A DNA stretch of 64,000 nucleotides from an uncultured delta proteobacterium (GTDB taxonomy: Bacteria > Desulfobacterota > RBG-13-43-22). The stretch covers positions 1 to 64,000 of the forward strand of contig CAWDKY010000025.1 in assembly GCA_963802945.1 (NCBI GenBank), given 5' to 3'. Position numbers and translations under genes: made by a program. Position 1 is the stretch's first letter, and each line of letters begins with the position of its first letter. Below the pieces are notes generated by a model. It ran no database searches, was not told the DNA's origin, and worked only from the letters and a program-made list of their open reading frames with translations. Positions 4,243-56,357 of this stretch are shown here, piece after piece.

Positions 4243-5614
4243 AGTTATCGGAGTGGCCCCTGCTTTGCCCCAGAGTAAGGAGCCGATTAAAATCGGGGTG
4301 ATCGCCAATATCGCTTGGCCTGTTGGCAATTCGGCCTCCCAGGCCGTTGAATTGGCCGTAAAGAATATCAATGAAAAAGGCGGCCTGATTGGAAGGTCTT
4401 TGAAGTTATTCAAGGCAGACAGCAAAGGCCAGGTTCCCAATGCCGTTGCTGAATATCGAAGATTGGTTATGACCGACGGCGTCTCGGCCATTGTCGTGGC
4501 CGAAGGGGGCACCGTAACGTTGGCCTGCTTGAAGGCCGGCGGAGAGCTATTCAAGGAATATCCTCACCTCATGTTTAATGCCGGGGCCTCGGCCGACGAT
4601 ATCCCTGAGACCATAAGAAAAAATTATGCCAATTATAAATTCTGCATCAATCCCTACACCACCGCCCCGGATAGATTTCTATCGGCAGCGATGATCAATA
4701 CCTTTTTGACCGAGCATGAAATTAAGCCCAAGCCTAAGAAGGTAGCCATAATCGGTGAGGATTTAATGGATTACAATCCCTATTGGCAGGGCTGGCCGGA
4801 ATACGGCTTCCGTCCCTATGCGGATATCGCCTATAAAGACCGAGGGGTGGAAGTGGTCTATACCGCCAAAATCGCCGTAGGGGAAAAAATGTTTCTGCCC
4901 ATCTTTGAAAAAATCGCCGCCTCCGGGGCCCAGTATATCGACTTTGCTATGAGCGCTTACAGCGACTTTTATGTCCTGGCTAAACAATGGGCCACCTCAG
5001 CCGCTAAAGATATCCCCATATTCCATTCCGGGGTATCCCCCAAATACTGGGATATTACCAACGGCGCCTGTCTGGGCATGGTCGGTTGGTGGCCCTCGGA
5101 TTTAACCAATTACGAGGTCGTTGGGAAAACCAGGGAATATGTGCAGGGTTTTAATAAAACCTTCGGCTATCCGGGCAGCAACTGGTTGGCTGAGGGGGCC
5201 TATGATGATGTTCTGTTTTGGGCTGAGGCCATAAAAAAAACAAGGTCCACCGATATCGAAAAATTAATCAAGACCCTGGAAAACATCGAGATTGATGGGG
5301 TCAGAGGAAAAATCAAAATCAATCCCCTAGATCACACCTGCCATAATTTCCCTTATAAAAAGGGAATTGTAGAAGACCTCGTCAAGGAAATCGCCAAGAG
5401 TTCACCGGCCAATATGAGCAAGGATATGGGCCGGGTTTTTAAGAAATGGGGATTTTTCCCCTACGGTGTTTACCCCTACGGTCCTTTGCCTCCCCTGGCC
5501 CAGTGGCAAAATAATGGCAAGATCGTTCTTTTATATCCACCCGAAATGGCTAAGATGTCCAATCCAGGACAACAGTATGTACCCATCAATGAGTTAAGGG
5601 CCAAACAAAAATAA
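4193..5614 (+). CDS. ABC transporter substrate-binding protein (LivJ/Peripla_BP_6 type)
   Basis: Signal peptide, EPIKIGVI, AVKNINEKGGLIGR, AYDDV; GGAGGG RBS. Confidence 0.85.
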   Translation: MKSKLLFSFIVVTALIIVIGVAPALPQSKEPIKIGVIANIAWPVGNSASQAVELAVKNINEKGGLIGRSLKLFKADSKGQVPNAVAEYRRLVMTDGVSAIVVAEGGTVTLACLKAGGELFKEYPHLMFNAGASADDIPETIRKNYANYKFCINPYTTAPDRFLSAAMINTFLTEHEIKPKPKKVAIIGEDLMDYNPYWQGWPEYGFRPYADIAYKDRGVEVVYTAKIAVGEKMFLPIFEKIAASGAQYIDFAMSAYSDFYVLAKQWATSAAKDIPIFHSGVSPKYWDITNGACLGMVGWWPSDLTNYEVVGKTREYVQGFNKTFGYPGSNWLAEGAYDDVLFWAEAIKKTRSTDIEKLIKTLENIEIDGVRGKIKINPLDHTCHNFPYKKGIVEDLVKEIAKSSPANMSKDMGRVFKKWGFFPYGVYPYGPLPPLAQWQNNGKIVLLYPPEMAKMSNPGQQYVPINELRAKQK

Positions 5615-8591: not shown

Positions 8592-8936
8592 TCAAATCAA
8601 CTCTAAATCGCTATCGGTGATAAAGCGCAACCAGTCAAGTACGCTGGGTTCATTGGATGCAAACCTGGACATATCGGAATCGTCCATCATATGATCCTGA
8701 GTGACAAAACATACCGGCCAACCGGGAATACCCGGTGAAACACCGCAGTGATCGTTGATTCGATAGGCCACGAATCCCGTCTCCGTGCAAGAAATCCGGT
8801 ATCGTCGTTCCTGGAGCCTGATTCGGATTGTCTGATTCAGCCATCCTTTGCTTTCAAAAATGTTGATAAAGGCTTGAAGGACATCCGTTGCCTTCATTTC
8901 TGGGAGATCTCGAAAGGATTTTTTGGCCGCCTTCAT
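8592..8936 (-). CDS. Hypothetical protein
   Basis: 114-aa ORF co-oriented and tightly packed with neighbours. Confidence 0.6.
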   Translation of the reverse strand: MKAAKKSFRDLPEMKATDVLQAFINIFESKGWLNQTIRIRLQERRYRISCTETGFVAYRINDHCGVSPGIPGWPVCFVTQDHMMDDSDMSRFASNEPSVLDWLRFITDSDLELI

Positions 8937-8942
8937 AATGCG

Positions 8943-9170
8943 TCATCCTTTTTCTTGTTCCGCATCCTTTTGGTTGGTTTCTTTCCACAACCAGATGACC
9001 AGGGAGACAATCCCCATCCAGGCCGACATTCCGGCAAAAAGGGCCATGAAAATTCTAAACTTCATTTCAACTCCCTTGATCCACATGGAGAGCAACAGAA
9101 AAATGACCATCCCCAGGATGATGATACCCAGCTTTTTACTGATCCTTTTTATATTCAATGCCTCGGCCAT
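8943..9170 (-). CDS. Small membrane protein (2 TM)
   Basis: Two hydrophobic stretches; GAAGGA RBS. Confidence 0.6.
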   Translation of the reverse strand: MAEALNIKRISKKLGIIILGMVIFLLLSMWIKGVEMKFRIFMALFAGMSAWMGIVSLVIWLWKETNQKDAEQEKG

Positions 9171-9384
9171 GTTTTAAGTCCTTCCAGGAAAAGGTTATGA
9201 GCAGTTAAGGCTAAAAAGCCCATGGATTTAAAATTGGATTGACACTTTTTCCGCTTATCCTATATAACATAATTTATCCGTTTTTGGGAAAAATTTTAAT
9301 CATTCAAGGGTCAAAACAACTTGTTTCACCGGCCACACCGGACCCTTGATCTTTTGACCATACTTTAAGTGTGAGAGTAGCCTA

Positions 9385-14953: not shown

Positions 14954-15220
14954 TTATAATTTTTCCCTCCAGAGTTCGAAAACCACGACGTTGTCTGGAT
15001 CAGGACAGGCCACCTGAAGCCGGTCAGGGTCTTTGGACCAGGGAAATTTACCGCCGAATTTTAAGACCGTATAAAAAGGAAATAGGCTCGTTAAAGCCCA
15101 CTGACAAATAGAAGAGCCCACTTCTTTTATTTCAAAGACCTCACCCACCTGATGTCCGTAGGGGCAGGTTCCTTCCCCTTTGATCTCCACAATTTTCCCC
15201 ATGACTTTATATTCGTCCAT
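14954..15220 (-). CDS. TIGR04076-like small protein
   Basis: GTCPYGHQVG, ICQWA, ACPDP, VVFEL pattern. Confidence 0.75.
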   Translation of the reverse strand: MDEYKVMGKIVEIKGEGTCPYGHQVGEVFEIKEVGSSICQWALTSLFPFYTVLKFGGKFPWSKDPDRLQVACPDPDNVVVFELWREKL

Positions 15221-15417
15221 GTTTCAAGTCCGACTGGTATATGGCCTTTTCTGCCTAAGGCGGGTTCGGTGTTCGACAAAATTGTAGGGGAGAAACGAAA
15301 ATTGTCAAGCAATTTTATAAAGCGGGAAAATAGTAGGGTAGGCCAGGAGGTAAGAGAGGGCAGCCTCGAAAAGTGAGCAACATATCAGCCAAATATGCGT
15401 TTCGGTTAGGTGGTTTC

Positions 15418-16122
15418 TCAAAGCATCTTGCAAGCCCCTGAAGGGCAGCGTTTTTCTTTGATGTGGGTTTCGAATTCGTCCTTGAAGTTGGATAGAATCG
15501 ACAGGACGATATGGGAAACTTTACCGGCAAAGGCACAATAAGGGGCTTGCATCATCAACTTAATTAAGGTTTCCATTTCCTGAACGGCATTGGCAGGTGC
15601 CTGACCGCACCTTATGGCCGAGGTGAGATCGGCCAGTTTCTGTACCCCCAGGCGGCAGGGGACACATTTGCCGCAGGATTCATCATAATGGAACTTGATC
15701 AGATACTCGGCCACTTCAACCATGCAACAGGAAGGATCCATGGTCATGATGCAGCCTGTGGTTTTTTCCCAGATCAAATCTCCGCGAATTGATTGCAGGG
15801 GATTAAGACGCAGCAGAGGGAAGACTATTTTCCCCTGTTTAACGGTTTCATTTAAGATGGTTGGAATATGACCTTCTTTAACTTTGCGATAGAAAACACC
15901 CATGTAAGGAAAACTTAGGAATGCCCCATTCTCACAGCTCCCGGAACATCCGCATTTGGCCGGCTCAACGACGACCTTGATATTCAGCTTCCGGGCTTCG
16001 GCGATAAGGCCTTGATAAATAGTCTCCGCCCCGCAGGCCTTATTTTTGGGATTGTTACAAACCGTTATCTTGGGGGTGGTGGCGATTTGGGGTTCGGCAA
16101 TATGTACAGCGGTTCTTGGCAT
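15418..16122 (-). CDS. Thioredoxin-like [2Fe-2S] ferredoxin fused to NuoF C-terminal [4Fe-4S] domain
   Basis: ITVC-x7-C..CSGSC..G; ESCGKCVPCRLG, CAFAG, FETHIKEKRCPSGAC. Confidence 0.8.
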   Translation of the reverse strand: MPRTAVHIAEPQIATTPKITVCNNPKNKACGAETIYQGLIAEARKLNIKVVVEPAKCGCSGSCENGAFLSFPYMGVFYRKVKEGHIPTILNETVKQGKIVFPLLRLNPLQSIRGDLIWEKTTGCIMTMDPSCCMVEVAEYLIKFHYDESCGKCVPCRLGVQKLADLTSAIRCGQAPANAVQEMETLIKLMMQAPYCAFAGKVSHIVLSILSNFKDEFETHIKEKRCPSGACKML

Positions 16123-16151
16123 GACCTATTTAAACTCCATTATAACTAAAA

Positions 16152-16270
16152 AGGGTTCAATCCCGCCATCGGCGGGATAGGATTCCAGGGTTCAAGGGTT
16201 TGTATTTTGAATTAAGAAATCTTTTCACTTGAATCCTTGACCCCTTCTTTTTGCCCCTTGAATCCTTCTT
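16152..16270. repeat. Octamer (GG[A/G]TTCAA) inverted repeat array with embedded CCCGCC-atc-GGCGGG hairpin
   Basis: gggttcaa..ggattcca gggttcaa ... cacttgaatccttgacccc..ccttgaatcc. Confidence 0.75.
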
Positions 16271-16271
16271 A

Positions 16272-17690
16272 TTAAGATATAATCGTCTTGCAGGCCGTCC
16301 GGGCCAGTTCAATAAACCAGGCCGGGAACGTCCCCATCAAGATTATGGCCAGGATCAATCCATAACTTAATAATCGATTGGAAAAATTCAAAGATACTGC
16401 CGGTAATCCATCGGGATCCTGTCCGTAGGCTGTGCGCACGATATTTAAATAATAATAGATTGAAATAGCCGTATTCACAGCGGCGATGATCACCAAAGTC
16501 AAGTGTCCCTGGTTAAGGGCTGCGACGAAAAGAAATAATTTTCCGGTAAAACCGGCTGTAGGGGGAATACCGGCCAGGGCAAAGGCCCCAACAGCCAAAG
16601 TAAAAGCCAATAAAGGCGACCGGCGGTAAAGACCGGAAAGGTCACTGATGGCAACATTTTCACCTTGGCGGGAAACGGCGCAAACCACCAGAAAGCAGGC
16701 CAGGTTCATCAATAAATAGGCGGAGATGTGATATATCGCTGCAGAAAAACCGGCGGTATTCAGAGTCAGGACTCCCAGCAAGACATAGCCGGCATGGGCT
16801 ATACTGGAATAAGCCAACAAGCGTTTGAGGTCTTTCTGAACCAGGGCCGCCAAGTTTCCAAAGGTCATGGAAACGGCGGAGAGTAAAACCAAAACCTGAA
16901 TCAAATCAACGGCACCGCTCCCGGCTAGACTGACCAGCCGAAGCAGAAGGGCCACGGCCCCCAATTTCGGCATGGTGGCCACAAAAGATGCGGTCTCGTT
17001 GGCCGCACCCTGGTAAACATCCGGGGTCCAGAACTGGAAGGGAACCACGGCCAACTTAAAGAAAAATCCGCAGAGAACCAAGAGAAGTCCGATAACGGCT
17101 ATGGGTTCCTTAAGGAGAGACGGCATCTTTTGCAGAATGTCCACTAAATAAGTTGAGCCGGTGACCCCAAAGATATAACTCATTCCAAAAAGCATAACCC
17201 CGGTGGCTGCGGCCCCGAAGATAATGTATTTAATGGCCGCTTCCATTTGTTGGCCGTGGGCCTGATTACGAATCGGGATCAGGACATAGAGGGAATAAGA
17301 GGACAACTCCATGGCAATAAATATAGTCAACAGTTCCACACTGCTGACCATCAACGAAAGACCCAGGGCACTGAGACTCAGAAACATAAAAAATTCCGGC
17401 TGAAGGTGTTCCTCAATGCCTTTTAATTTTCGTCCCAGAACGACAACCAGAAACAGCCCCAGACTGATCAGGCATTTGAAAATCTGAGAAAAAAGATCAA
17501 CCCGGTATGACCGATAGAAGAGCTCTCCCGATTGATTAAGGTTCAACAGAGAGATGATGACTCCAGCGGCGGAAAGAAAAAGGGCCAGTCCCTGATTGAG
17601 GTCAGCCGACGATTTCCACATGGACTGGCAGAAAAAAATCATGGCCATAAAAAGCAGAAAGGTTTCCGGTAGAAATAACGAGAAATCCAT
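16272..17690 (-). CDS. nuoN: NADH-quinone oxidoreductase subunit N
   Basis: EAAIKYIIFG, FKLAVVPFQFWTPDVYQGA, KRLLAYSSIAHAGY, GIPPTAGFTGK. Confidence 0.93.
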   Translation of the reverse strand: MDFSLFLPETFLLFMAMIFFCQSMWKSSADLNQGLALFLSAAGVIISLLNLNQSGELFYRSYRVDLFSQIFKCLISLGLFLVVVLGRKLKGIEEHLQPEFFMFLSLSALGLSLMVSSVELLTIFIAMELSSYSLYVLIPIRNQAHGQQMEAAIKYIIFGAAATGVMLFGMSYIFGVTGSTYLVDILQKMPSLLKEPIAVIGLLLVLCGFFFKLAVVPFQFWTPDVYQGAANETASFVATMPKLGAVALLLRLVSLAGSGAVDLIQVLVLLSAVSMTFGNLAALVQKDLKRLLAYSSIAHAGYVLLGVLTLNTAGFSAAIYHISAYLLMNLACFLVVCAVSRQGENVAISDLSGLYRRSPLLAFTLAVGAFALAGIPPTAGFTGKLFLFVAALNQGHLTLVIIAAVNTAISIYYYLNIVRTAYGQDPDGLPAVSLNFSNRLLSYGLILAIILMGTFPAWFIELARTACKTIIS

Positions 17691-17717
17691 TATGATTCGT
17701 TCCTCAGTAACATAAGA

Positions 17718-19214
17718 CTATTTAACCAGAGCCAGGGCATTCTCGGCTTGCACTTGATCGATCAAATGAGCCACACTGGCATGCATGACATCTAAAAACG
17801 GTCCTGGATTAAATCCGATCCACAATACGAAGACGACCAGAGGGGCCAGATAAATAATTTCCCTGAGATTCATATCCTTAAAGTTGGGATTTCCTTCCCC
17901 GCCCCAGGCGATCTTCTGAAGCAACCGAAGCATATAGGCCGCGGCCAGGACCACGCCGGGGATGGCCAGTGCCCCGATCAGTTTGTGATTCAAAAAGGTC
18001 CCGATCAAAACCAACAGCTCTCCCACGAAGCTGTTGGTCCCAGGAAAGGCCATGGAAGAAAGGCTGAAAAACCCTAAAAACCCTATGTAAATAGGCATGA
18101 TCGAACTGATTCCCGAATTGACCGAAATCAAACGGCTGTGGCTTCTTTCGTAAATGATCCCCACACAGAGAAAAAGCGCCCCGGTGGTGACCCCGTGATT
18201 GATCATTTGCAGGATGGCCCCTTCCAGCCCTTGTTTATTAAAAAGAAAGGTCCCCAGGGTGACAAATCCCATATGGGCCACACTGGAGTAGGCAATCAAA
18301 CGTTTCATATCGCTTTGCCCCAGGGCCACATAGCCTCCATAAAGGATGGAGATGATGGAAATCCCGAAGACATAAGGGGCAAAATAGACGCTGGCCTGTG
18401 GGGTGATGGGCAGGCAAAAACGGACAAACCCGTAGGTCCCCATTTTCAGCAATATGCTGGCCAGGATGACACTGCCGGCGGTCGGGGCCTCCACGTGGGC
18501 GGCCGGTAACCAGGTATGCAGAGGGGCCATTGGGACTTTGATGGCAAAGGCAAATCCCATGGCCAGAAAGATCCAGAACTGAAAGTTAAAAGAAAATTTA
18601 TGGGCCATCAACTCCGGAATGCTGAAGGTCCCGGCGTTCAAATAAAGGGCGATCATGGCCACCAGCAGGAAGACGCTGCCGGCCATGGTATAGATGAAGA
18701 ACTTGATGGAGGCATAGACCTTTTCCGGACCGCCCCAGACGGCGATCAACAGGTACATGGGGACCAGCATGGCCTCAAAGAAAATATAAAAGAGGACGAA
18801 ATCCAGGGCGGAAAAAACACCGACACAGGCCGTTTCAATTAAAAGCAGAGAGAAAAGAAATTCCCTGACCCGTTTCTCAATGTATTTCCAGGAAGCCAGG
18901 ATACAAATAGGCGTGAGCAGAGTGCTTAACAGGACCAGAAGGAGACTGATCCCGTCCACCCCAACGGTGTAATTGATTTTTAACCCGGGGATCCAGGGCC
19001 AATGTTCGGCGAACTGGTATTTGTAGGTGGACAAATCAAACGAAAAATAAAGAGGCAGAGAAAGGGCGAAATTGACGATACTGATGATCAGGGACCAGAT
19101 TTTGGCCGTTGTCTCATTTCGAATGATAAAAAGCACCACGGCCCCGGCCAAAGGCAAAAAGATGAATGTGCTTAAAATGGGATAACTAAGCTGATTGGGA
19201 ATGAGAAAATCCAT
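17718..19214 (-). CDS. nuoM: NADH-quinone oxidoreductase subunit M
   Basis: GVDGISL, IKVPMAPLHTWLPAAHVEAPT, LLKMGTYG, KRLIAYSSVAHMG. Confidence 0.93.
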   Translation of the reverse strand: MDFLIPNQLSYPILSTFIFLPLAGAVVLFIIRNETTAKIWSLIISIVNFALSLPLYFSFDLSTYKYQFAEHWPWIPGLKINYTVGVDGISLLLVLLSTLLTPICILASWKYIEKRVREFLFSLLLIETACVGVFSALDFVLFYIFFEAMLVPMYLLIAVWGGPEKVYASIKFFIYTMAGSVFLLVAMIALYLNAGTFSIPELMAHKFSFNFQFWIFLAMGFAFAIKVPMAPLHTWLPAAHVEAPTAGSVILASILLKMGTYGFVRFCLPITPQASVYFAPYVFGISIISILYGGYVALGQSDMKRLIAYSSVAHMGFVTLGTFLFNKQGLEGAILQMINHGVTTGALFLCVGIIYERSHSRLISVNSGISSIMPIYIGFLGFFSLSSMAFPGTNSFVGELLVLIGTFLNHKLIGALAIPGVVLAAAYMLRLLQKIAWGGEGNPNFKDMNLREIIYLAPLVVFVLWIGFNPGPFLDVMHASVAHLIDQVQAENALALVK

Positions 19215-19315
19215 GTTTGTTAATTTCCCTGAGTTAAATATTAGGTTACGGTACAAGGTTCAAGGTCTAGTAATGTCATGGAATTACCTTGAATCTTAAT
19301 CTTCATACCTGTATT

Positions 19316-38501: not shown

Positions 38502-38607
38502 CTTTTTGCAATGATGAAAACGATTGCAGATGGGGTATGTTTTAGGGTAATGTTTAGTTACTCTTTAGAAGATCACCATTATCATGAAAATGAAAGGGGA
38601 AGGCTGG

Positions 38608-39261
38608 ATGGATCTTCAATTTATTCAGGCCCGGGACTTACCCGATGCCTGGTTTCAATGTGTTTCTGCGATCCTGGACCATGGGCAGGAATATGTCATC
38701 GACCGGGGCAGTTTCACAGGCCAAAAACGACTGGAGTTTGATTATCTGACGATTCAGATCAAATATCCTGGGACCCGTCCGTTGATTCCGGATATTCCTC
38801 TTGCCCTCGGTATCCCCAATCCGGTGGCCGAAGGTTATGTCGAGCAATATCTCCCCTACCTGATGACCTCGGTAAAGCAGCCTAATGAGGATTATACCTA
38901 TGGGCAATATCTGGAACCTCAGATTCAAGAAGTCATCCGCATGTATAAGGAAGAGGGTTATGGGACCAACCAAGCCTATATGACCGTTGGGAACCCAGAG
39001 GCCATTTATTTGAATGACCCGCCTTGCCTGCGGGGGATAGACACACGGGTCCGGAACAAACAACTCCATTTTTTCATTTATTTCCGATCCTGGGATTTAT
39101 GGAACGGCTTCCCGGCCAATCTGGCGGCCATCCAGTATCTCAAGGAATACATGGCCCAAGAAATCGGGGTCGGGGACGGCGAGATTGTGGCTGCCAGCAA
39201 AGGACTCCATCTCTATGATTATGTCTGGGAATTAGCCAAGCTGAGGGCATTGAAGAAGTGA
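38608..39261 (+). CDS. thyA: Thymidylate synthase-like protein (short ThyA type)
   Basis: YTYG, DPPCL, FRSWD, PANL, GLHLY. Confidence 0.8.
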   Translation: MDLQFIQARDLPDAWFQCVSAILDHGQEYVIDRGSFTGQKRLEFDYLTIQIKYPGTRPLIPDIPLALGIPNPVAEGYVEQYLPYLMTSVKQPNEDYTYGQYLEPQIQEVIRMYKEEGYGTNQAYMTVGNPEAIYLNDPPCLRGIDTRVRNKQLHFFIYFRSWDLWNGFPANLAAIQYLKEYMAQEIGVGDGEIVAASKGLHLYDYVWELAKLRALKK

Positions 39262-39525
39262 GGGGTGACAAGAAGAACTTTCAAAATGCAAAATTCAAAG
39301 TGAAGAAGTTACCATACTCTGACTTGCCGCAACCCGCAATTCGTAATCCACAATCCGATTTTGATGTTATTGTCATCGGCGCCGGGGCCTCAGGGATGAT
39401 GGCTGCGGGCCGGGCTGCGGAAATGGGGGCCCGAGTCCTTTTGTTGGAAAAGATGCCCCGCGTTGGATTGAAGCTCGGTATAACTGGCAAAGGGCGTTGC
39501 AATTTGACTAACCAGGGCGACATCA
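39258..39525 (+). pseudogene. Truncated 5' copy of HI0933/YhiN-family flavoprotein gene
   Basis: GTG start coupled to thyA stop; VIVIGAGASG...TGKGRCNLTN then breaks off at 39525. Confidence 0.85.
39345..39525 (+). repeat. 181-bp perfect direct repeat, copy 1
   Basis: Identical to 41867-42047; extends 26 bp upstream (39319/41841) with 4 mismatches. Confidence 0.95.
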
Positions 39526-40002
39526 GAAACGATCGTGGTGTAGGGTCGCCGTGAACACTCTGTTACTAATCCACTCAACGCGTAATTCATCATCAACCAA
39601 AATCATTTTCAGAGTGGCATTATTCCTCAAATTTTTGAGTACGCAACGCCCTTCTTTATCAATGGTGGTCTGTTGCCTAATGTAGCCACCAACGAAATTC
39701 ATGGAGCTGCCCACTGAACTCACTACCGTAGCATTGATTGTACCATTACTGGGGTCGATTTCGATTCTCTCAAATACAACCTGTGCATTCGACATAATTT
39801 GTTCCCTAAGAGTCATGTATACTCCAGTCCACTTACCGGAAAGTTTGGCGATGCTCGGTGGAACTTCTGGCCCCGGCTCCACGATATTTAGGTCTTTTGG
39901 TAGCGGAGACCATTCCGCGATAGCTAAATTAACTATAGCTGGGTTAACTCCAAAAAAACAAACCATGGCCAATAAAACCATCAAAATAACACTTCTTCTC
40001 AT
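39523..40002 (-). CDS. Secreted hypothetical protein (cargo gene)
   Basis: GGGAGG RBS, N-terminal signal peptide, AT-rich upstream; stop codon is the last 3 nt of the repeat. Confidence 0.75.
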   Translation of the reverse strand: MRRSVILMVLLAMVCFFGVNPAIVNLAIAEWSPLPKDLNIVEPGPEVPPSIAKLSGKWTGVYMTLREQIMSNAQVVFERIEIDPSNGTINATVVSSVGSSMNFVGGYIRQQTTIDKEGRCVLKNLRNNATLKMILVDDELRVEWISNRVFTATLHHDRF

Positions 40003-40133
40003 TGTCTTTCCTCCCCATTATTAAGTTTTTTGTGTGCTTAAAACAATATACGCTATTTTGTATAGGCATATTATATATGGTTAGCTTAGCAAATTATAAA
40101 CACTTTTTGATAAGACTTTTCTTTTGATGGGAG

Positions 40134-40162
40134 ACTATAAAATAAGGGAAAGATAGAATCAA
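40134..40162 (-). promoter_or_regulatory. Outward-facing sigma70 promoter in element end
   Basis: TTGATT-17-TATAGT, conserved in position at 56091-56119. Confidence 0.7.
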
Positions 40163-40320
40163 GGAGAAAAATGAGGCCAAAGATAGGGTGACAAAGGGGG
40201 ACTTCAAAAAAAAAGGTATTTTACCGGTCGAAATATTAACAATAGAGGGAGATAAAGAGAAAAGAAGAGGCAAATTGCCAAGATTTGAACAAACTACTCC
40301 CTTTACATCCTGATTTTCCC

Positions 40321-41655
40321 TTAACCGGAGGAATGATCTGAGGAAGTCCTGAAATCCTGGTCAAAGGCTTCCTCATAGAAAGGAAGTTGGGAGTCCGAGT
40401 AATCTATCTGAAGTTCGAGGGAGTTGGGTTTGGGTGGGGGTCTCTGATTGGTTTGCCATAAGCCCAAGTGCAAAAGAATCTTGTTGATTACTTCCTGATC
40501 GTCTATAATACTGATAATCCGCATCGGCCCTTGGCATTTGGGGCAGGTCAGGGGATCGACTTCGTAAATCTTTTGAATCAAGCGAGCCCAATTCCGGTTG
40601 GGTTTGGCGTTCTCATCTGGTTCCAGGACACAGGGAATGAGGGCATCTTCATTTTCTTTTTGACGAAGTCCCCGGGAGACGTTACTATAGAAACCATAAT
40701 AGCGAACCATTTGTTCACGCTGATCGGGGATATGGGAGGTCATGGCCGCCAGCCAATCTAAGGCATCGAAGATTTTTTCTTGCCGGTTGTCCTTGGAGCG
40801 GTAGATGATCCGGGATTCTTCCGGGAGATAGGGCATTCGTTCCTGAGAGAAAGAGGCCCGGATGATATAGCGTGCCAGGTTTTCCATAGCCTCTTTTTTT
40901 CTTGGCAGGATTCGGGGTCCGCAAAAAACCTGAAATCCCGAATGCCTCCAGGATTTCAGCAGATTAATATGATCGGGAGTGATTTTACCTTTAGAGAGAA
41001 GCAAGGTAAGAACTTTGGATCTGTAGATTTTTTCCAGATATTTAAGATTAACAGTCGGGACGACCTTAAAAAAACCCTTCTCGGGGAAACAACCATCGGT
41101 AATCAGAACATGGCCGTGGGGGTTAAAGCCCAGAAAATCTCCAAAGGTTTGGATGGCGATGACCGCCCCCGGAACGGATTTTTTACCCGGGTGGGAATGT
41201 TGATAATAGATTTTCAAAGATTCCCAAATACAGCGGCTGAGTTCTAAAAGCAACCTTCGATCGTAGAGAAAATATCTTCGCAAAATTTTAGGGATACCGA
41301 ACACGAAATGCCTGTGAGGGACGGCTTTAATTACGTTTTGACAGAGCCATTCCCCGAATTCCACTACCCTCTTTTGATGACAGGATGGGCAAAAGTGACG
41401 GCGTTTACAAGAAAAGGCCAATAGATATTCATGGCCGCAGTCTTCGCACTTGATCCTGGCAAAACCGTTGAGGAGATTGCCACAATCCAGATACCTCTCC
41501 ATAACCTTTCTGACATGTGGTCGAAAGAATCCGTATATCCTTTCAAAACGATCTTCATAAACTTGTTCCAGGGTTTCAAGGTGGTCTTCAACGCAGCGAT
41601 AGTAAGGGGTCTGTTTGGGATTTCGAGGACGGTATACGGGTGAAGGGACGAGCAT
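40321..41655 (-). CDS. IS91-family (HUH) transposase
   Basis: Zn domain CGN..GFARIKCEDC..FSCKRRHFCPSC, QTFG..NPHGH (HUH), WRHSGF, ENLARYIIR, VRYYGFY, YEVDPLTCPKC. Confidence 0.93.
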   Translation of the reverse strand: MLVPSPVYRPRNPKQTPYYRCVEDHLETLEQVYEDRFERIYGFFRPHVRKVMERYLDCGNLLNGFARIKCEDCGHEYLLAFSCKRRHFCPSCHQKRVVEFGEWLCQNVIKAVPHRHFVFGIPKILRRYFLYDRRLLLELSRCIWESLKIYYQHSHPGKKSVPGAVIAIQTFGDFLGFNPHGHVLITDGCFPEKGFFKVVPTVNLKYLEKIYRSKVLTLLLSKGKITPDHINLLKSWRHSGFQVFCGPRILPRKKEAMENLARYIIRASFSQERMPYLPEESRIIYRSKDNRQEKIFDALDWLAAMTSHIPDQREQMVRYYGFYSNVSRGLRQKENEDALIPCVLEPDENAKPNRNWARLIQKIYEVDPLTCPKCQGPMRIISIIDDQEVINKILLHLGLWQTNQRPPPKPNSLELQIDYSDSQLPFYEEAFDQDFRTSSDHSSG

Positions 41656-41811
41656 GTTGCTGGAGACTGCATATTCTTTGCCATTTCATTTAGGTCGTTA
41701 TTTTAAGCAAAATACGGGATAATGAAGAATAATGTTGTAGATAACAGCGAAGAAACTTTACACCGATTGGAACTTTTAGTTTCAAATCAGAAAAAAGAAA
41801 TATTTTTTTGG

Positions 41812-43126
41812 ATGAAGAAAATTGGCCTCTTTCGTTTGCCCTGACTTCCCGCAATCCGCAATCCGCAATCCACAATCCGATTTTGATGTTATTGTCATCG
41901 GCGCCGGGGCCTCAGGGATGATGGCTGCGGGCCGGGCTGCGGAAATGGGGGCCCGAGTCCTTTTGTTGGAAAAGATGCCCCGCGTTGGATTGAAGCTCGG
42001 TATAACTGGCAAAGGGCGTTGCAATTTGACTAACCAGGGCGACATCAATGCCTTTCTGGACAGTTATTCTCCGGACGGCCGGTTTCTCCGAAATTGTCTG
42101 GCCCGTTTTTTTAATCAGGATTTGATGAATTTTTTTGAACAGCGTGGGGTGCCTTTAGTCGTGGAAAGGGGAGGGCGGGTTTTTCCAAAATCAAATCGGG
42201 CCCTGGATGTAGTTTCCGCTCTGGTGGGTTTTATAAGAGAGAAGAAAGTTACAATAGTCAAAGAAGATCCAGTCCAGGAAGTCATGGTTCATTCCGGCCA
42301 AGTGGAAGGGGTCGAGACACAAAATGGAGCCTTCAGGGCCCAGGCCGTAATTTTGGCCACAGGCGGGGCCTCATACCGGAAGACCGGTTCGACCGGGGAA
42401 GGTTTTCGAATGGCACAACAGGCTGGTCATAAGATTGTACCCATCCGTCCTTTTTTAATCCCTTTGAAAGTCAAGGACCCTTGGGTCAAAGAACTCCAGG
42501 GGCTTTCTTTAAAAAATGTCTCGGCATCTGTATTAATAAATGGCCGGAAGGATTGTTCGGAGTTTGGAGAGATGCTTTTTACCCATTTCGGGGTTTCCGG
42601 ACCGATCATCCTGACCCTGAGCGGCCGGGTGGCCGATGTCCTCAAACAAGGCCGAGTAGAAATCTCAATTAATCTTAAACCCGCTTTAACCCAGGAACAA
42701 CTGGATGAGAGATTGAAAAGAGAATTGAAGACCCATCATCTCAAAGGACTACAAGGGATATTGAAATTTTTATTGCCCAACAGGATGATCCCGGTTTTTC
42801 TGGCCCTTTCCCAAATTCCAAGGGATAAAAAAGGAAATCAGATTACCGCAGAAGAACGCTCACGAATGAGGACCTTGCTCAGCGACTTCAGAATGACAGT
42901 GACCGGGACCCGGCCTCTGGAAGAGGCGATCATCACTGCCGGCGGTGTTCTCTTGAAAGAGGTGAATCCCAAAACCATGGAATCGAGAATTATCAGCGGA
43001 CTTTTTCTTTGCGGCGAGGTTTTGGATATTCAGGGTAAAACCGGCGGCTACAACCTGCAGGCCGCCTTTTCTACCGGCTGGGTGGCCGGAGAGAGTGCGG
43101 CGAAACGAGTGACAAGTGACGAATGA
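41812..43126 (+). CDS. HI0933/YhiN-family NAD(P)/FAD-dependent oxidoreductase
   Basis: GAGASG, TGKGRCNLTN, GRVFP, ATGGASY, GEMLFTHFGVSGP, TAGGV, GGYNLQAAFSTG; ATG 41812 is in frame if one extra C near 41840 is removed, otherwise TTG 41822. Confidence 0.92.
41867..42047 (+). repeat. 181-bp perfect direct repeat, copy 2
   Basis: Identical to 39345-39525. Confidence 0.95.
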
Positions 43127-43193: not shown

Positions 43194-44237
43194 ATGACCT
43201 CAAAAATCGATCTCCGAAATCTGACTTTCGAAGAATTGCGGGACTGGATTGCCGGCCTCGGATTAGAGCCTTACCGGGCCGAACAGATCTCTCGTTGGAT
43301 CTTTCAACCGGCCATCACCACCTTTGATCAAATGACTAATTTATCCAAGAAATGGCAAGGCCTTTTCCAGGAGCAGGCTTATTTAAGCAGGTTGTTAATT
43401 CAGAAAATCGAAACATCCTCCGATGGATCTCAAAAATTTCTTTTTAAGTTGGAGGATGGAGAGCATATTGAAAGTGTCCTGATCCCCGAACGGGGTCATT
43501 ACACCTTGTGCATTTCTTCCCAAGTAGGTTGTGCTCAAAAATGCCGTTTTTGTTTTACGGGTAAGATGGGTCTTAAAAGAAACCTCAAGGCTTCGGAGAT
43601 CATCAACCAGATCCTGGGCGTTCAAGAGACATTAAGAGACAAAGATCCCCTTTTGACCAACATTGTTTTAATGGGCATGGGGGAACCCCTGCACAATTTT
43701 GAAAGCACAATTCGGGCCTTAAAGACCATGCTATCCCCGAGGGGAATGCAGTTTTCTCACCGCCATGTAACTCTGTCCACGGCCGGTCTGATTCCGGAGA
43801 TCAAGGCCCTGGGTAAAATCCTTCCGGTAAGTCTGGCGGTTTCCTTGAATGCGGCCGATGATACGACCAGAAATCGCCTGATGCCTGTCAACCGGAAATA
43901 TCCCCTGGAATCCTTGATCCAGACTTGTCGGGAGTTTCCTTTGCCCCACGGTAAAAGGATCACCTTTGAATATATCCTGATTAAAGGCATCAATGATTCC
44001 CCACTGGCAGCCAAGGCCCTGGTCAAATTACTTTCCGGGGTAAAGGCCAAGCTCAATCTGATCCCTTTCAATCCCCATCCCGGCGTTGGCTTTGAACCTC
44101 CTGATGAAAAGGATCTCGTAAGGTTTCAAGATATCTTGATCCGTTCTCAGTATACCGCCATCATCCGTAGAAGCAAGGGGGCCGATATCTCGGCTGCCTG
44201 CGGGCAGCTCCACGCCGAATGGACCTCGCCTCATTAA
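43194..44237 (+). CDS. rlmN: 23S rRNA (adenine2503-C2)-methyltransferase RlmN
   Basis: CISSQVGCAQKCRFC, MGMGEP, LAVSLNA, NLIPFN, DISAACGQL. Confidence 0.96.
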   Translation: MTSKIDLRNLTFEELRDWIAGLGLEPYRAEQISRWIFQPAITTFDQMTNLSKKWQGLFQEQAYLSRLLIQKIETSSDGSQKFLFKLEDGEHIESVLIPERGHYTLCISSQVGCAQKCRFCFTGKMGLKRNLKASEIINQILGVQETLRDKDPLLTNIVLMGMGEPLHNFESTIRALKTMLSPRGMQFSHRHVTLSTAGLIPEIKALGKILPVSLAVSLNAADDTTRNRLMPVNRKYPLESLIQTCREFPLPHGKRITFEYILIKGINDSPLAAKALVKLLSGVKAKLNLIPFNPHPGVGFEPPDEKDLVRFQDILIRSQYTAIIRRSKGADISAACGQLHAEWTSPH

Positions 44238-53816: not shown

Positions 53817-53900
53817 CGGCCGTCCTCCCTTGGTGAAATATTTGGGATGGATAAAAAATATAAAAAAGTTTCAGGGAAGAGTCAATACCTTTCTGAGTTT

Positions 53901-54097
53901 AATAAGACTATTCGTTCTAAAGAGGCTACTACAAAACAGGAAAACATGGGATCAAGGGGGAACATAAGGCCAAAAGTGAGGGGGTAAAGGGGGCTTGTTA
54001 AGAAAATGGGGCTTAACCAATGTAGATTTTACCAGGTAGAAAGGAAGCTGGGAATCGGAGTAGACCATCTGCATTTCGTGGGATTTGGGTTTGGTGG
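53901..54097 (-). mobile_element. Deleted IS91/ISCR-like remnant (transposase C-terminus + element end)
   Basis: 54040-54095 encodes KPKSHEMQMVYSDSQLPF vs transposase KPNSLELQIDYSDSQLPF; 53901-54040 aligns with 40109-40245. Confidence 0.75.
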
Positions 54098-55870: not shown

Positions 55871-56065
55871 CAGTATTACCTCCAAATTATCCCCGAATCG
55901 GATAATTTTACTTCTTTACCAGCCATTTTTTGTAGCAGGCCCCCCGCGATCTGCAAAGGGCCGCCCTATTCACGGAGAGGCTCGAGTAACCTTGTTTGAG
56001 TGCCGCCAGATTTTTCTTTTTTCAGTCTCTTTAATAAGCCCATCGTGGAAATCAGAATGGGCATT

Positions 56066-56357
56066 GATAGGACTTGCTTTTTATAGGGAGAGTATAAAAC
56101 AACAAAAAAATAAGATCAAAGAAAAAAGAGGGCCAAAGGTGAGGAGACAAAGGGTCTTCTGAAGAAAAAGTAACTTTGCCGGGTTGTATTTTACAGATAG
56201 CAGGCGATAGGGAGAAAAAAGAGGTAATGAGGGGGTCTTCATTTTCTTTTTGACGAAGCCTTCGGGAAGCGTTACTATAAAACCATAATAGCGAACTATT
56301 TGCTCGCGCTGGTCGGGCATAGGAGAGTACATAGCCGCTGGCCTATCTAAGCCATCA
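56066..56357 (-). mobile_element. Deleted IS91/ISCR-like remnant (transposase fragment + element end with promoter)
   Basis: 56225-56357 aligns with 40635-40768 (PDQREQIVRYYGF); 56066-56224 aligns with 40109-40270; TTGATC-17-TATACT; end ...AAAAAGCAAGTCCTATC. Confidence 0.82.

Follow-up and report, generated by a model that had tools for sequence, protein, structure and literature searches.

An IS91-type element and a foreign gene bracketed by a duplicated yhiN gene start in an uncultured delta proteobacterium

We identified a foreign gene and an IS91-type element of ~1.7 kb that together entered the gene yhiN of an uncultured delta proteobacterium (GTDB lineage Bacteria; Desulfobacterota; RBG-13-43-22). 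The locus lies in the first 64,000 nucleotides (nt) of contig CAWDKY010000025.1 in assembly GCA_963802945.1. This whole stretch is referred to here as the window, and positions are those of its forward strand unless a contig or locus is named. Nucleotides 20-226 of yhiN, which encodes a flavoprotein, are duplicated around the insertion. A 580-nt neighbouring segment with a gene for a small secreted protein (the cargo gene) came with the element. The capture layout is ISCR1-like; it was built by a distant relative of IS91 with one catalytic tyrosine and has its anchor in a core gene. It most likely originated through homologous recombination in yhiN with the allele of another strain that carried the insertion sequence (IS), the cargo gene and a 5' piece of yhiN.

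A repeat search of the window returned a 207-nt direct repeat (39319-39525 and 41841-42047) with 98% identity, the copies lying 2522 nt apart. A script located a perfect block of 181 nt inside it (39345-39525 is identical to 41867-42047), a match far beyond chance. Pairwise alignment placed all four mismatches in the first 26 nt of the repeat and found the outer flanks of the two copies to be unrelated. An initial annotation of this DNA, made from the letters alone, had described a perfect 181-bp repeat preceded by 26 bp with four mismatches, and, reading the minus strand, the order repeat, HUH transposase, promoter-bearing element end, cargo gene, repeat. Search, script and alignment gave the same repeat, and both the order and its coordinates were correct. 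The 2315-nt insert between the copies has three parts, which are the cargo segment (39526-40105), the element (40106 to ~41786-41803) and an orphan stretch of 30-54 nt. Along the plus strand, the locus consists of a ThyA-family gene, a 5' stump of yhiN, the cargo open reading frame and the transposase gene (both on the minus strand), a spacer of 185 nt, a full-length yhiN-like gene, and rlmN. The features are as follows.

38584..39261, plus strand: ThyA-family gene, 225 amino acids (Pfam Thymidylat_synt, E 3.4e-10), the native upstream neighbour of yhiN
39300..39554, plus strand: truncated yhiN 5' fragment, with the native GTG start and upstream region kept; yhiN nt 1-226, then foreign sequence
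39319..39525, plus strand: left repeat copy, 207 nt, corresponding to yhiN nt 20-226 (repeat search, alignment, script)
39523..40002, minus strand: cargo gene, an open reading frame of 159 amino acids with a signal-peptide-like N-terminus
40003..40105, minus strand: leader outside the IS, between element end and cargo start, with GGGGAGGAAAG ahead of the ATG; the homology of other element copies stops at ~40106
40106..40320, minus strand: transposase-distal (oriIS-side) element end, a common sharp end in more than 40 copies, with an outward promoter (predicted) and the terminus ...TCTTATCAAA
40321..41655, minus strand: IS91-family HUH transposase, 444 amino acids, with a single catalytic tyrosine, Y263 (PF14319 and PF04986; NF033538)
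41656..41803, minus strand: transposase-proximal (terIS-side) element end, with firm homology to 41786 and weak homology to ~41803
41804..41840, no strand: orphan stretch filling the gap from element to right repeat; it supplies the new TTG start of yhiN (41822)
41841..42047, plus strand: right repeat copy, 207 nt (repeat search, alignment, script)
41822..43126, plus strand: full-length yhiN-like flavoprotein gene, 434 amino acids, with a chimeric N-terminus (Pfam HI0933_like, E 1.4e-85; TIGR00275)
43194..44237, plus strand: rlmN, the native downstream neighbour (Pfam RlmN_N and Radical_SAM)

The orphan stretch has no match in the 20 other genomes of the family, and a 24-mer taken from it has none in the metagenome contigs.

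The transposase matches the Pfam families Zn_Tnp_IS91 (PF14319, E 5e-20) and Y2_Tnp (PF04986, E 7.7e-22). It passes the NCBI model for the IS91 family, NF033538, with 174.1 bits against a cut-off of 125, and fails the model for ISCR clade Ia, NF052416, with 126.9 bits against a cut-off of 925. We aligned the protein with annotated ISCR1, ISVsa3/ISCR2, another IS91-family protein and IS91 from plasmid records. The HxH motif (H180, H182) and Y263 are invariant with respect to ISCR1, ISCR2 and IS91. Four residues before the catalytic tyrosine the protein has asparagine (E-N-L-A-R-Y), where the ISCR proteins have arginine and IS91 has its second tyrosine (Y-F-G-S-Y). The catalytic tyrosine is kept in 99 of 100 relatives from genome and metagenome contigs, and the residue at position -4 is tyrosine in one of them and asparagine in 90. 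Sequence identity is 29% to ISCR2, 28% to ISCR1 and 27% to IS91. In a tree of 19 rows, the clade of the transposase groups with relatives from the environment. The long branch of ISCR1 and ISCR2 arises within this environmental group, apart from the clade of the transposase and weakly supported (83/71), and IS91 forms an outlier of very great length. The gene is the single intact copy in the genome, since only one of 39 tblastn high-scoring segment pairs is full length and the other 38 are fragments. From its domains, motifs and place in the tree, the element is classed in the IS91 family and is of the one-tyrosine kind, close in type to the ISCR elements and outside the named ISCR clade. The initial annotation had already read a single catalytic tyrosine (ENLARY) in place of the YxxxY of IS91, as the alignment and the 100 relatives bear out. 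Its term ISCR-like, or ISCR-type, is apt for the single tyrosine and the IS91 family; the NF052416 score and the tree do not extend it to membership of the ISCR clade.

The limits of the element are well marked by its other copies. A full-length copy at locus L143 has homology that spans exactly 41786 to 40106. More than 40 copies and fragments all stop at ~40106, and four independent copies begin at 41786 (one was seen in two loci, L143 and L208). The match to a near-identical metagenome contig also stops at 41786. Beyond that position, four independent copies (L143, L217, L206 and L096) have some 16-24 further bases in common, with ter tips that read CTCG in two copies and CCCG or CTTG in the other two. 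PMC13181058 gives CTCG as the ter cleavage site of IS91. The element in the window keeps only ATATTTC of the common stretch and has CTGA at the boundary instead of a CTCG-type tetranucleotide. The two element ends are unlike each other in consensus, and no inverted repeat pairs the regions at 40106 and 41786. Neither junction with yhiN coincides with an element end, and ordinary transposition therefore did not make these junctions.

The transposase-distal end shows strong conservation over its last ~110 nt, with the consensus ...CTCCTTGACC-17 nt-TATACT...TCTTATCAAA. Conservation is highest at two hexamers (CTTGAC and TATAC) and at the terminus TCTTATCAAA. A promoter scan of the copy in the window returned TTGATT (40162-40157) and TATAGT (40139-40134) on the minus strand with a spacing of 17 nt, aimed at the cargo gene ~125 nt further on. 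The end is thus predicted to hold a near-consensus outward promoter of the sigma-70 type, which may drive the cargo gene. A conserved element end with a promoter had been noted beforehand, and the hexamers at 40162-40134 on the minus strand correspond to the conserved TTGACC-17-TATACT motif of the other copies. In ISCR1, outward promoters lie in the oriIS region with variable genes beyond them, according to PMC6218425.

A profile search found ~128 copies of the promoter-bearing end in the 4.37-Mb genome, 100 of which reach the terminus; most lie just upstream of genes. A transposase-like coding sequence occurs within 600 nt upstream of 13 of these 100 copies, and the other 87 have none nearby. 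With a crude gene set, 81 of the 98 genes that come next after the terminus are co-directional with the end (62 with a start within 300 nt), compared with 36 of 96 on the mirrored side (22 within 300 nt). Copies in the window include 40106-40215, 53898-53999 and 56064-56164. Contig C30 carries seven end copies on one strand within 16 kb (G000:C30:272963-289128; locus L222, 271500-291000). The genes between them are unrelated and encode a radical SAM protein, a kinase/pyrophosphorylase, an acyl-CoA dehydrogenase, nitroreductases, MarC and a protein with a metallo-beta-lactamase fold. Sequences 78-97% identical to these genes at the nucleotide level are scattered across four of the 20 contigs of genome G008, and in genome G005 (loci L223-L229) the genes occur in a different order with element end copies at some of the breakpoints. 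The array resembles cassette shuffling, a comparison limited by possible paralogy and by the fragmentation of G005.

Relatives have an empty site at this position. An orthologue of yhiN is present in all 20 other genomes of the family. Among 19 loci of relatives, thyA lies directly upstream of a single yhiN in 15 and rlmN lies downstream in 17; the cargo gene is found at none, and transposase-like sequence at one (a fragment between yhiN and rlmN in G007). The initial annotation had proposed comparing thyA-yhiN-rlmN synteny in relatives with an empty site as one expected outcome, and the insert is indeed absent from them. In the closest relative, G005, the thyA-yhiN junction is uninterrupted and aligns with the left flank and left repeat copy of the window. 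At the four mismatch sites of the repeat, the right copy agrees with G005 at all four (4/4) and the left copy differs. By hand arithmetic, the chance that four random changes in 207 nt would all fall in those 26 nt, next to junction J2, is ~2.5e-4. Given this clustering, the two repeat copies most likely stem from two alleles and not from later decay; an earlier suggestion that one copy contains the gene start of a related allele agrees with this.

A different cargo at the same gene start, which had likewise been predicted, is present in genome G011 (locus L018, G011:C169:31833-36107, 260-1500). There, thyA and its spacer are followed by yhiN nt 1 to ~66, by an orphan ABC-transporter permease gene (PF00528) and a partial promoter end, both on the minus strand, and then by another stretch resembling the spacer and full-length yhiN. 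BLAST cannot align the two yhiN 5' copies of G011; by eye they resemble the versions of this variable region found in different species.

We also noted several other arrangements in the family and in metagenomes. In G006 (L230, G006:C88:3000-15824), yhiN has neither thyA nor rlmN within 6.8 kb upstream and 4.7 kb downstream, and it has an element-end fragment just upstream and transposase fragments 3.5 kb downstream. The gap between thyA and yhiN in G020 (L024, 961-1447) is ~480 nt, whereas most relatives have 40-165 nt there. Apart from the copy in the window, the family has a single full-length copy of the element, L071 in G010; it lies in an island bounded by a perfect 42-nt repeat (2847-2888 and 9207-9248) that by appearance looks like the 3' end of a tRNA. 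A second promoter-end copy occurs 3.4 kb downstream of it (5310-5553 and 8908-9151), preceded by an amidohydrolase-like gene, named by eye, and by genes resembling a sigma/anti-sigma factor pair. At L216, an element relative of 57% identity has a perfect 28-nt direct repeat (763-790 and 2541-2568) abutting its ...GTCTTATCAAA end. We looked for a replaced block of a yhiN allele by sliding identity to G005 and by per-segment identities for G011; no sharp foreign block appeared, and this candidate was set aside.

The full-length yhiN-like protein scores 466 with TIGR00275 (cut-off 183.8), and the Pfam HI0933_like match of the truncated fragment is limited to the first 53 profile positions. The left copy begins at the native GTG (39300), giving the N-terminus VKKLPYSD as read earlier. 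The N-terminus MKKIGLFRL proposed for the full-length copy was incorrect, as its ATG (41812) lies one base off the yhiN frame and leads to a stop, TGA, at 41842-44. The sole in-frame start of this copy is the TTG at 41822 (MASFVCPDFPQS...), because an in-frame TGA lies at 41813-15. The rebuilt gene has 434 codons for amino acids, and the frames open across the match in relatives have 432 to 487. The view that the insertion rebuilt an intact chimeric gene and uncoupled it from thyA is right for the 434-residue frame and for the separation from thyA, now 2.5 kb; it does not hold for the native start codon and ribosome site, which were lost along with the thyA link. A promoter scan found no promoter-like site ahead of the full-length gene. 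The thyA-linked stump, which would encode 84 residues, is presumably dead. The ThyA-family protein is 97% identical in amino acids to that of G005 and falls below the NCBIfam cut-offs for thymidylate synthase, the label thyA being taken from the Pfam match only.

The start of yhiN encodes an N-terminal tail in tandem heptamers, CCGCAAT/CCGCAAC (41846-41875 and 39324-39353 in the window). In G003, G004 and G011, reverse-complement heptamers occur in the spacer upstream of yhiN, and a long hairpin could form. Summed contig depth over this heptamer run rises to as much as 13,005 in metagenomes from sediment, groundwater and soil.

The cargo gene takes its stop codon from the host, as the TGA is formed by the last three nucleotides of the left repeat. 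The gene is about full length (159 amino acids, compared with 150), and by its position it would gain the predicted promoter of the element. It has no match to a Pfam or NCBIfam family, and a word-indexed protein search returned only the cargo protein itself. An Atlas search gave unnamed clusters at 0.92 and weak leads to avidin and DUF proteins (0.85-0.88), on which no identity was assigned. Homologues occur at unrelated places in G005 (52% identity) and G008 (34%), and the one in G005 is surrounded by debris of the same element family; a search at class level took in the same 21 genomes as the one within the family.

How the element and cargo came to lie between two copies of the yhiN start is best accounted for by a route of the ISCR1 type, in which a read-through circle recombined with the resident yhiN; we put the probability of this route at roughly 0.45, and the homologous recombination itself we infer. 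An element with a defective termination end would have lain beside the yhiN start in another strain. Read-through past the poor ter end would pick up the yhiN start, and a later read-through would pick up the cargo. The simplest form of the incoming DNA would be a circle produced by read-through ('one-ended') rolling-circle transposition, and one crossover between the circle and the resident yhiN would duplicate the shared segment on both sides. A 2006 review of ISCR elements reportedly sets out a successive-event model for ISCR1 between two copies of the 3'-conserved segment (3'-CS). The empty site in relatives, together with a cargo gene found elsewhere or nowhere, is consistent with such a route. 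In addition, the ter tip departs from those of four independent copies that agree with one another, and the layout recurs at this site in G011, where the cargo is another and the two yhiN 5' copies are of unlike allele types. In IS91-type elements, termination fails in 1-14% of events, circles form, and no target duplication is made, as given in PMC13181058. The ISCR1-type route fits because of the degenerate ter tip, this rate of termination failure and formation of circles, and the recurrence at one gene with different cargo. The initial annotation likewise had a circle recombining into the chromosome; the two alleles, the empty site and the case of G011 favour recombination with another allele, and a linear donor or an unequal crossover would yield the same product as a circle.

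A number of observations count against this account. No circle, empty-site variant or donor allele was seen. A simple circle produced by read-through at the ori end carries the ter-side flank (the orphan stretch and the yhiN piece) and not cargo from the ori side, so with the cargo on the ori side several successive events are needed. Donor and recipient would have to share 181 identical nt and still differ at four positions within 26 nt. The module in G011 contains no transposase and only a partial element. We found no flanking duplication comparable to the yhiN repeat around 67 genome loci with transposase relatives, and 1 of 79 metagenome loci had a flanking repeat (L216, 28 nt), which makes one of 146 other loci. 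Folding of five copies gave no support for a ter-end hairpin (z-scores -0.13 to 1.07). In ~40 copies, the flanks that follow ...TCTTATCAAA have no target tetranucleotide of the CTTG/GTTC type in common abutting the ori end, a comparison affected by the uncertain position of the exact ori cleavage point within the terminal run of A residues. Finally, none of the 18 public runs found contains more than 0.08 of the sampled words of the locus, and no RNA run is listed among them.

A single-step alternative begins with a linear donor fragment. The cargo, IS and orphan stretch would have been inserted beforehand just before nt 20 of yhiN in a related strain, and the fragment would then integrate through one-sided homology. 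Its right part would recombine in yhiN or rlmN, and its broken left end, located inside the 3' end of the cargo gene, would be joined illegitimately at yhiN nt 226. This would duplicate nt 20-226 at one stroke. It would account for the position of junction J1 precisely at the end of the cargo gene, with the stop codon taken from yhiN, and for the two allele types in the repeat. No circle with ori-side cargo is required, and the G011 module, which has no transposase, also fits. However, the scheme calls for a prior insertion at nearly the same place, which none of the 20 genomes of the family has. It also explains less naturally why the layout recurs at one gene in two species, and it relies on competence of the organism, which is itself only assumed. 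We regard it as somewhat unlikely. The same final structure could also result from unequal crossing over inside the element, between an insertion at yhiN nt 226/227 (with the cargo) and another at nt 19/20, carried by sister chromosomes or by two strains. Remnants of the element abound in the genome (the 39 tblastn pairs and 128 end copies mentioned above), and the start of yhiN is a site of insertion in G011 and G006 as well. Yet this requires two independent insertions in the same orientation 207 nt apart, neither yhiN junction is an element end, and the genome has only one intact copy; we consider it very unlikely.

Last among the alternatives, the true state could be an intact thyA-yhiN pair plus a separate circular or tandem molecule of 2.5 kb sharing the 181 nt, joined by the assembler. 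The sequence is a metagenome-assembled genome with 6.72% estimated contamination, some of its small contigs duplicate parts of larger ones at 99% identity, and the alternative path through the 181-nt repeat gives exactly an empty site plus a circle. Against this, the assembly is free of N, and within contigs of 61-327 kb it holds several copies of a 1.14-kb IS that are 100% identical to one another. Resolution of such copies argues for long reads, which should bridge a repeat of 181 nt. Moreover, two contigs, the longest of 1.12 Mb, are on record with the exact cargo and transposase proteins, both possibly from the same data, and the independent genome G011 has the same layout. This indirect evidence favours a real structure over a misassembly, which we consider extremely unlikely. 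Four runs that were mapped gave only transposase relatives and a very deep pile of the CCGCAAT heptamer, with nothing across the junctions.

The 1.14-kb repeat is unrelated to the element described here and is presumably another IS; it has at least seven copies of 99.8-100% identity, all inside contigs (for example C27:63136-64279, C27:88956-90099 and C16:115459-116602). The small contigs are 99.1-99.7% identical to parts of large ones (window 14958-19234 and C54; C17:211784-215190 and C69). These contigs probably represent strain variants and account for the contamination estimate.

A broader proposal is, in our judgement, quite unlikely. The one-tyrosine IS91 clade could be a chromosomal system of gene capture and expression in which promoter-bearing ends of ~110 nt border movable units, and re-entry occurs through carried homology to a core gene (yhiN). 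If so, read-through or end-to-end rolling-circle events would collect the units, and the whole would amount to an integron-like economy of cassettes run by an HUH enzyme. It would also explain the different cargo at the same gene start in two species.

The layout has its closest counterpart in complex class 1 integrons with ISCR1, which have the order 3'-CS, ISCR1, variable genes, and a partial second 3'-CS. Both are built around an IS91-related HUH transposase with one tyrosine. Both also have a host segment duplicated on either side of the module, as the initial annotation recognised and as the 207-nt repeat and the second case in G011 confirm, and in both the ter-side end is atypical. A precise boundary on the oriIS side with variable genes past it is common to both; the outward promoters that drive these genes in ISCR1 (PMC6218425) have a predicted counterpart in the end described here. 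The transposase in the window, however, is only 28% identical to that of ISCR1 and is without an insert of ~60 residues common to ISCR1 and ISCR2. The anchor is the chromosomal core gene yhiN and not the 3'-CS of a plasmid integron, and the cargo is a small secreted protein and not a resistance gene.

IS91, IS1294 and IS801 resemble the element in their Zn-binding N-terminal domain, HUH motif and conserved tyrosine, and in two unlike ends with neither terminal inverted repeats nor a short target duplication. A CTCG-type tetranucleotide at the ter boundary, which related copies of our element have, is likewise described for them in PMC13181058. IS91 differs in having two tyrosines (YFGSY) and an upstream orf121, whereas the element here has one tyrosine and no orf121. 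It also has no CTTG/GTTC-like target next to the ori end.

Integration of the Campbell type, by a single crossover, and homology-facilitated illegitimate recombination both leave a duplicated homologous segment bracketing foreign DNA, and both can keep allele differences at one edge of the repeat, as here. These are general routes; in the present case a rolling-circle element forms the core of the incoming DNA and may itself make the substrate. The short copies of the element end call to mind the Correia elements of Neisseria, which are miniature repeats bearing promoters. As with those, there are many (~128) short copies in one genome, often just upstream of genes and with promoter hexamers. 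They differ from Correia elements in being one end of an IS91-type element, in lacking an inverted-repeat structure, and in their strong one-way bias toward genes.

PMC6218425 states that, as of 2018, no ISCR element had been experimentally shown to transpose, and the usual account of how ISCR1 complex integrons are assembled thus rests on reading finished structures. The locus described here is a natural, non-clinical example of the ISCR1 layout in a distant branch of the family, and G011 provides a second natural instance with other cargo. With its intact transposase, sharp ends and an empty site in sister species, it offers a clean starting point for tests of three steps, namely capture by read-through, the formation of circles and homology-based rescue. 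Such elements rewire core genes: the flavoprotein gene was cut off from its operon and deprived of its start codon, and a foreign gene gained a promoter predicted to be strong. The abundance of promoter-bearing ends suggests a genome-wide influence of this element family on transcription in its hosts.

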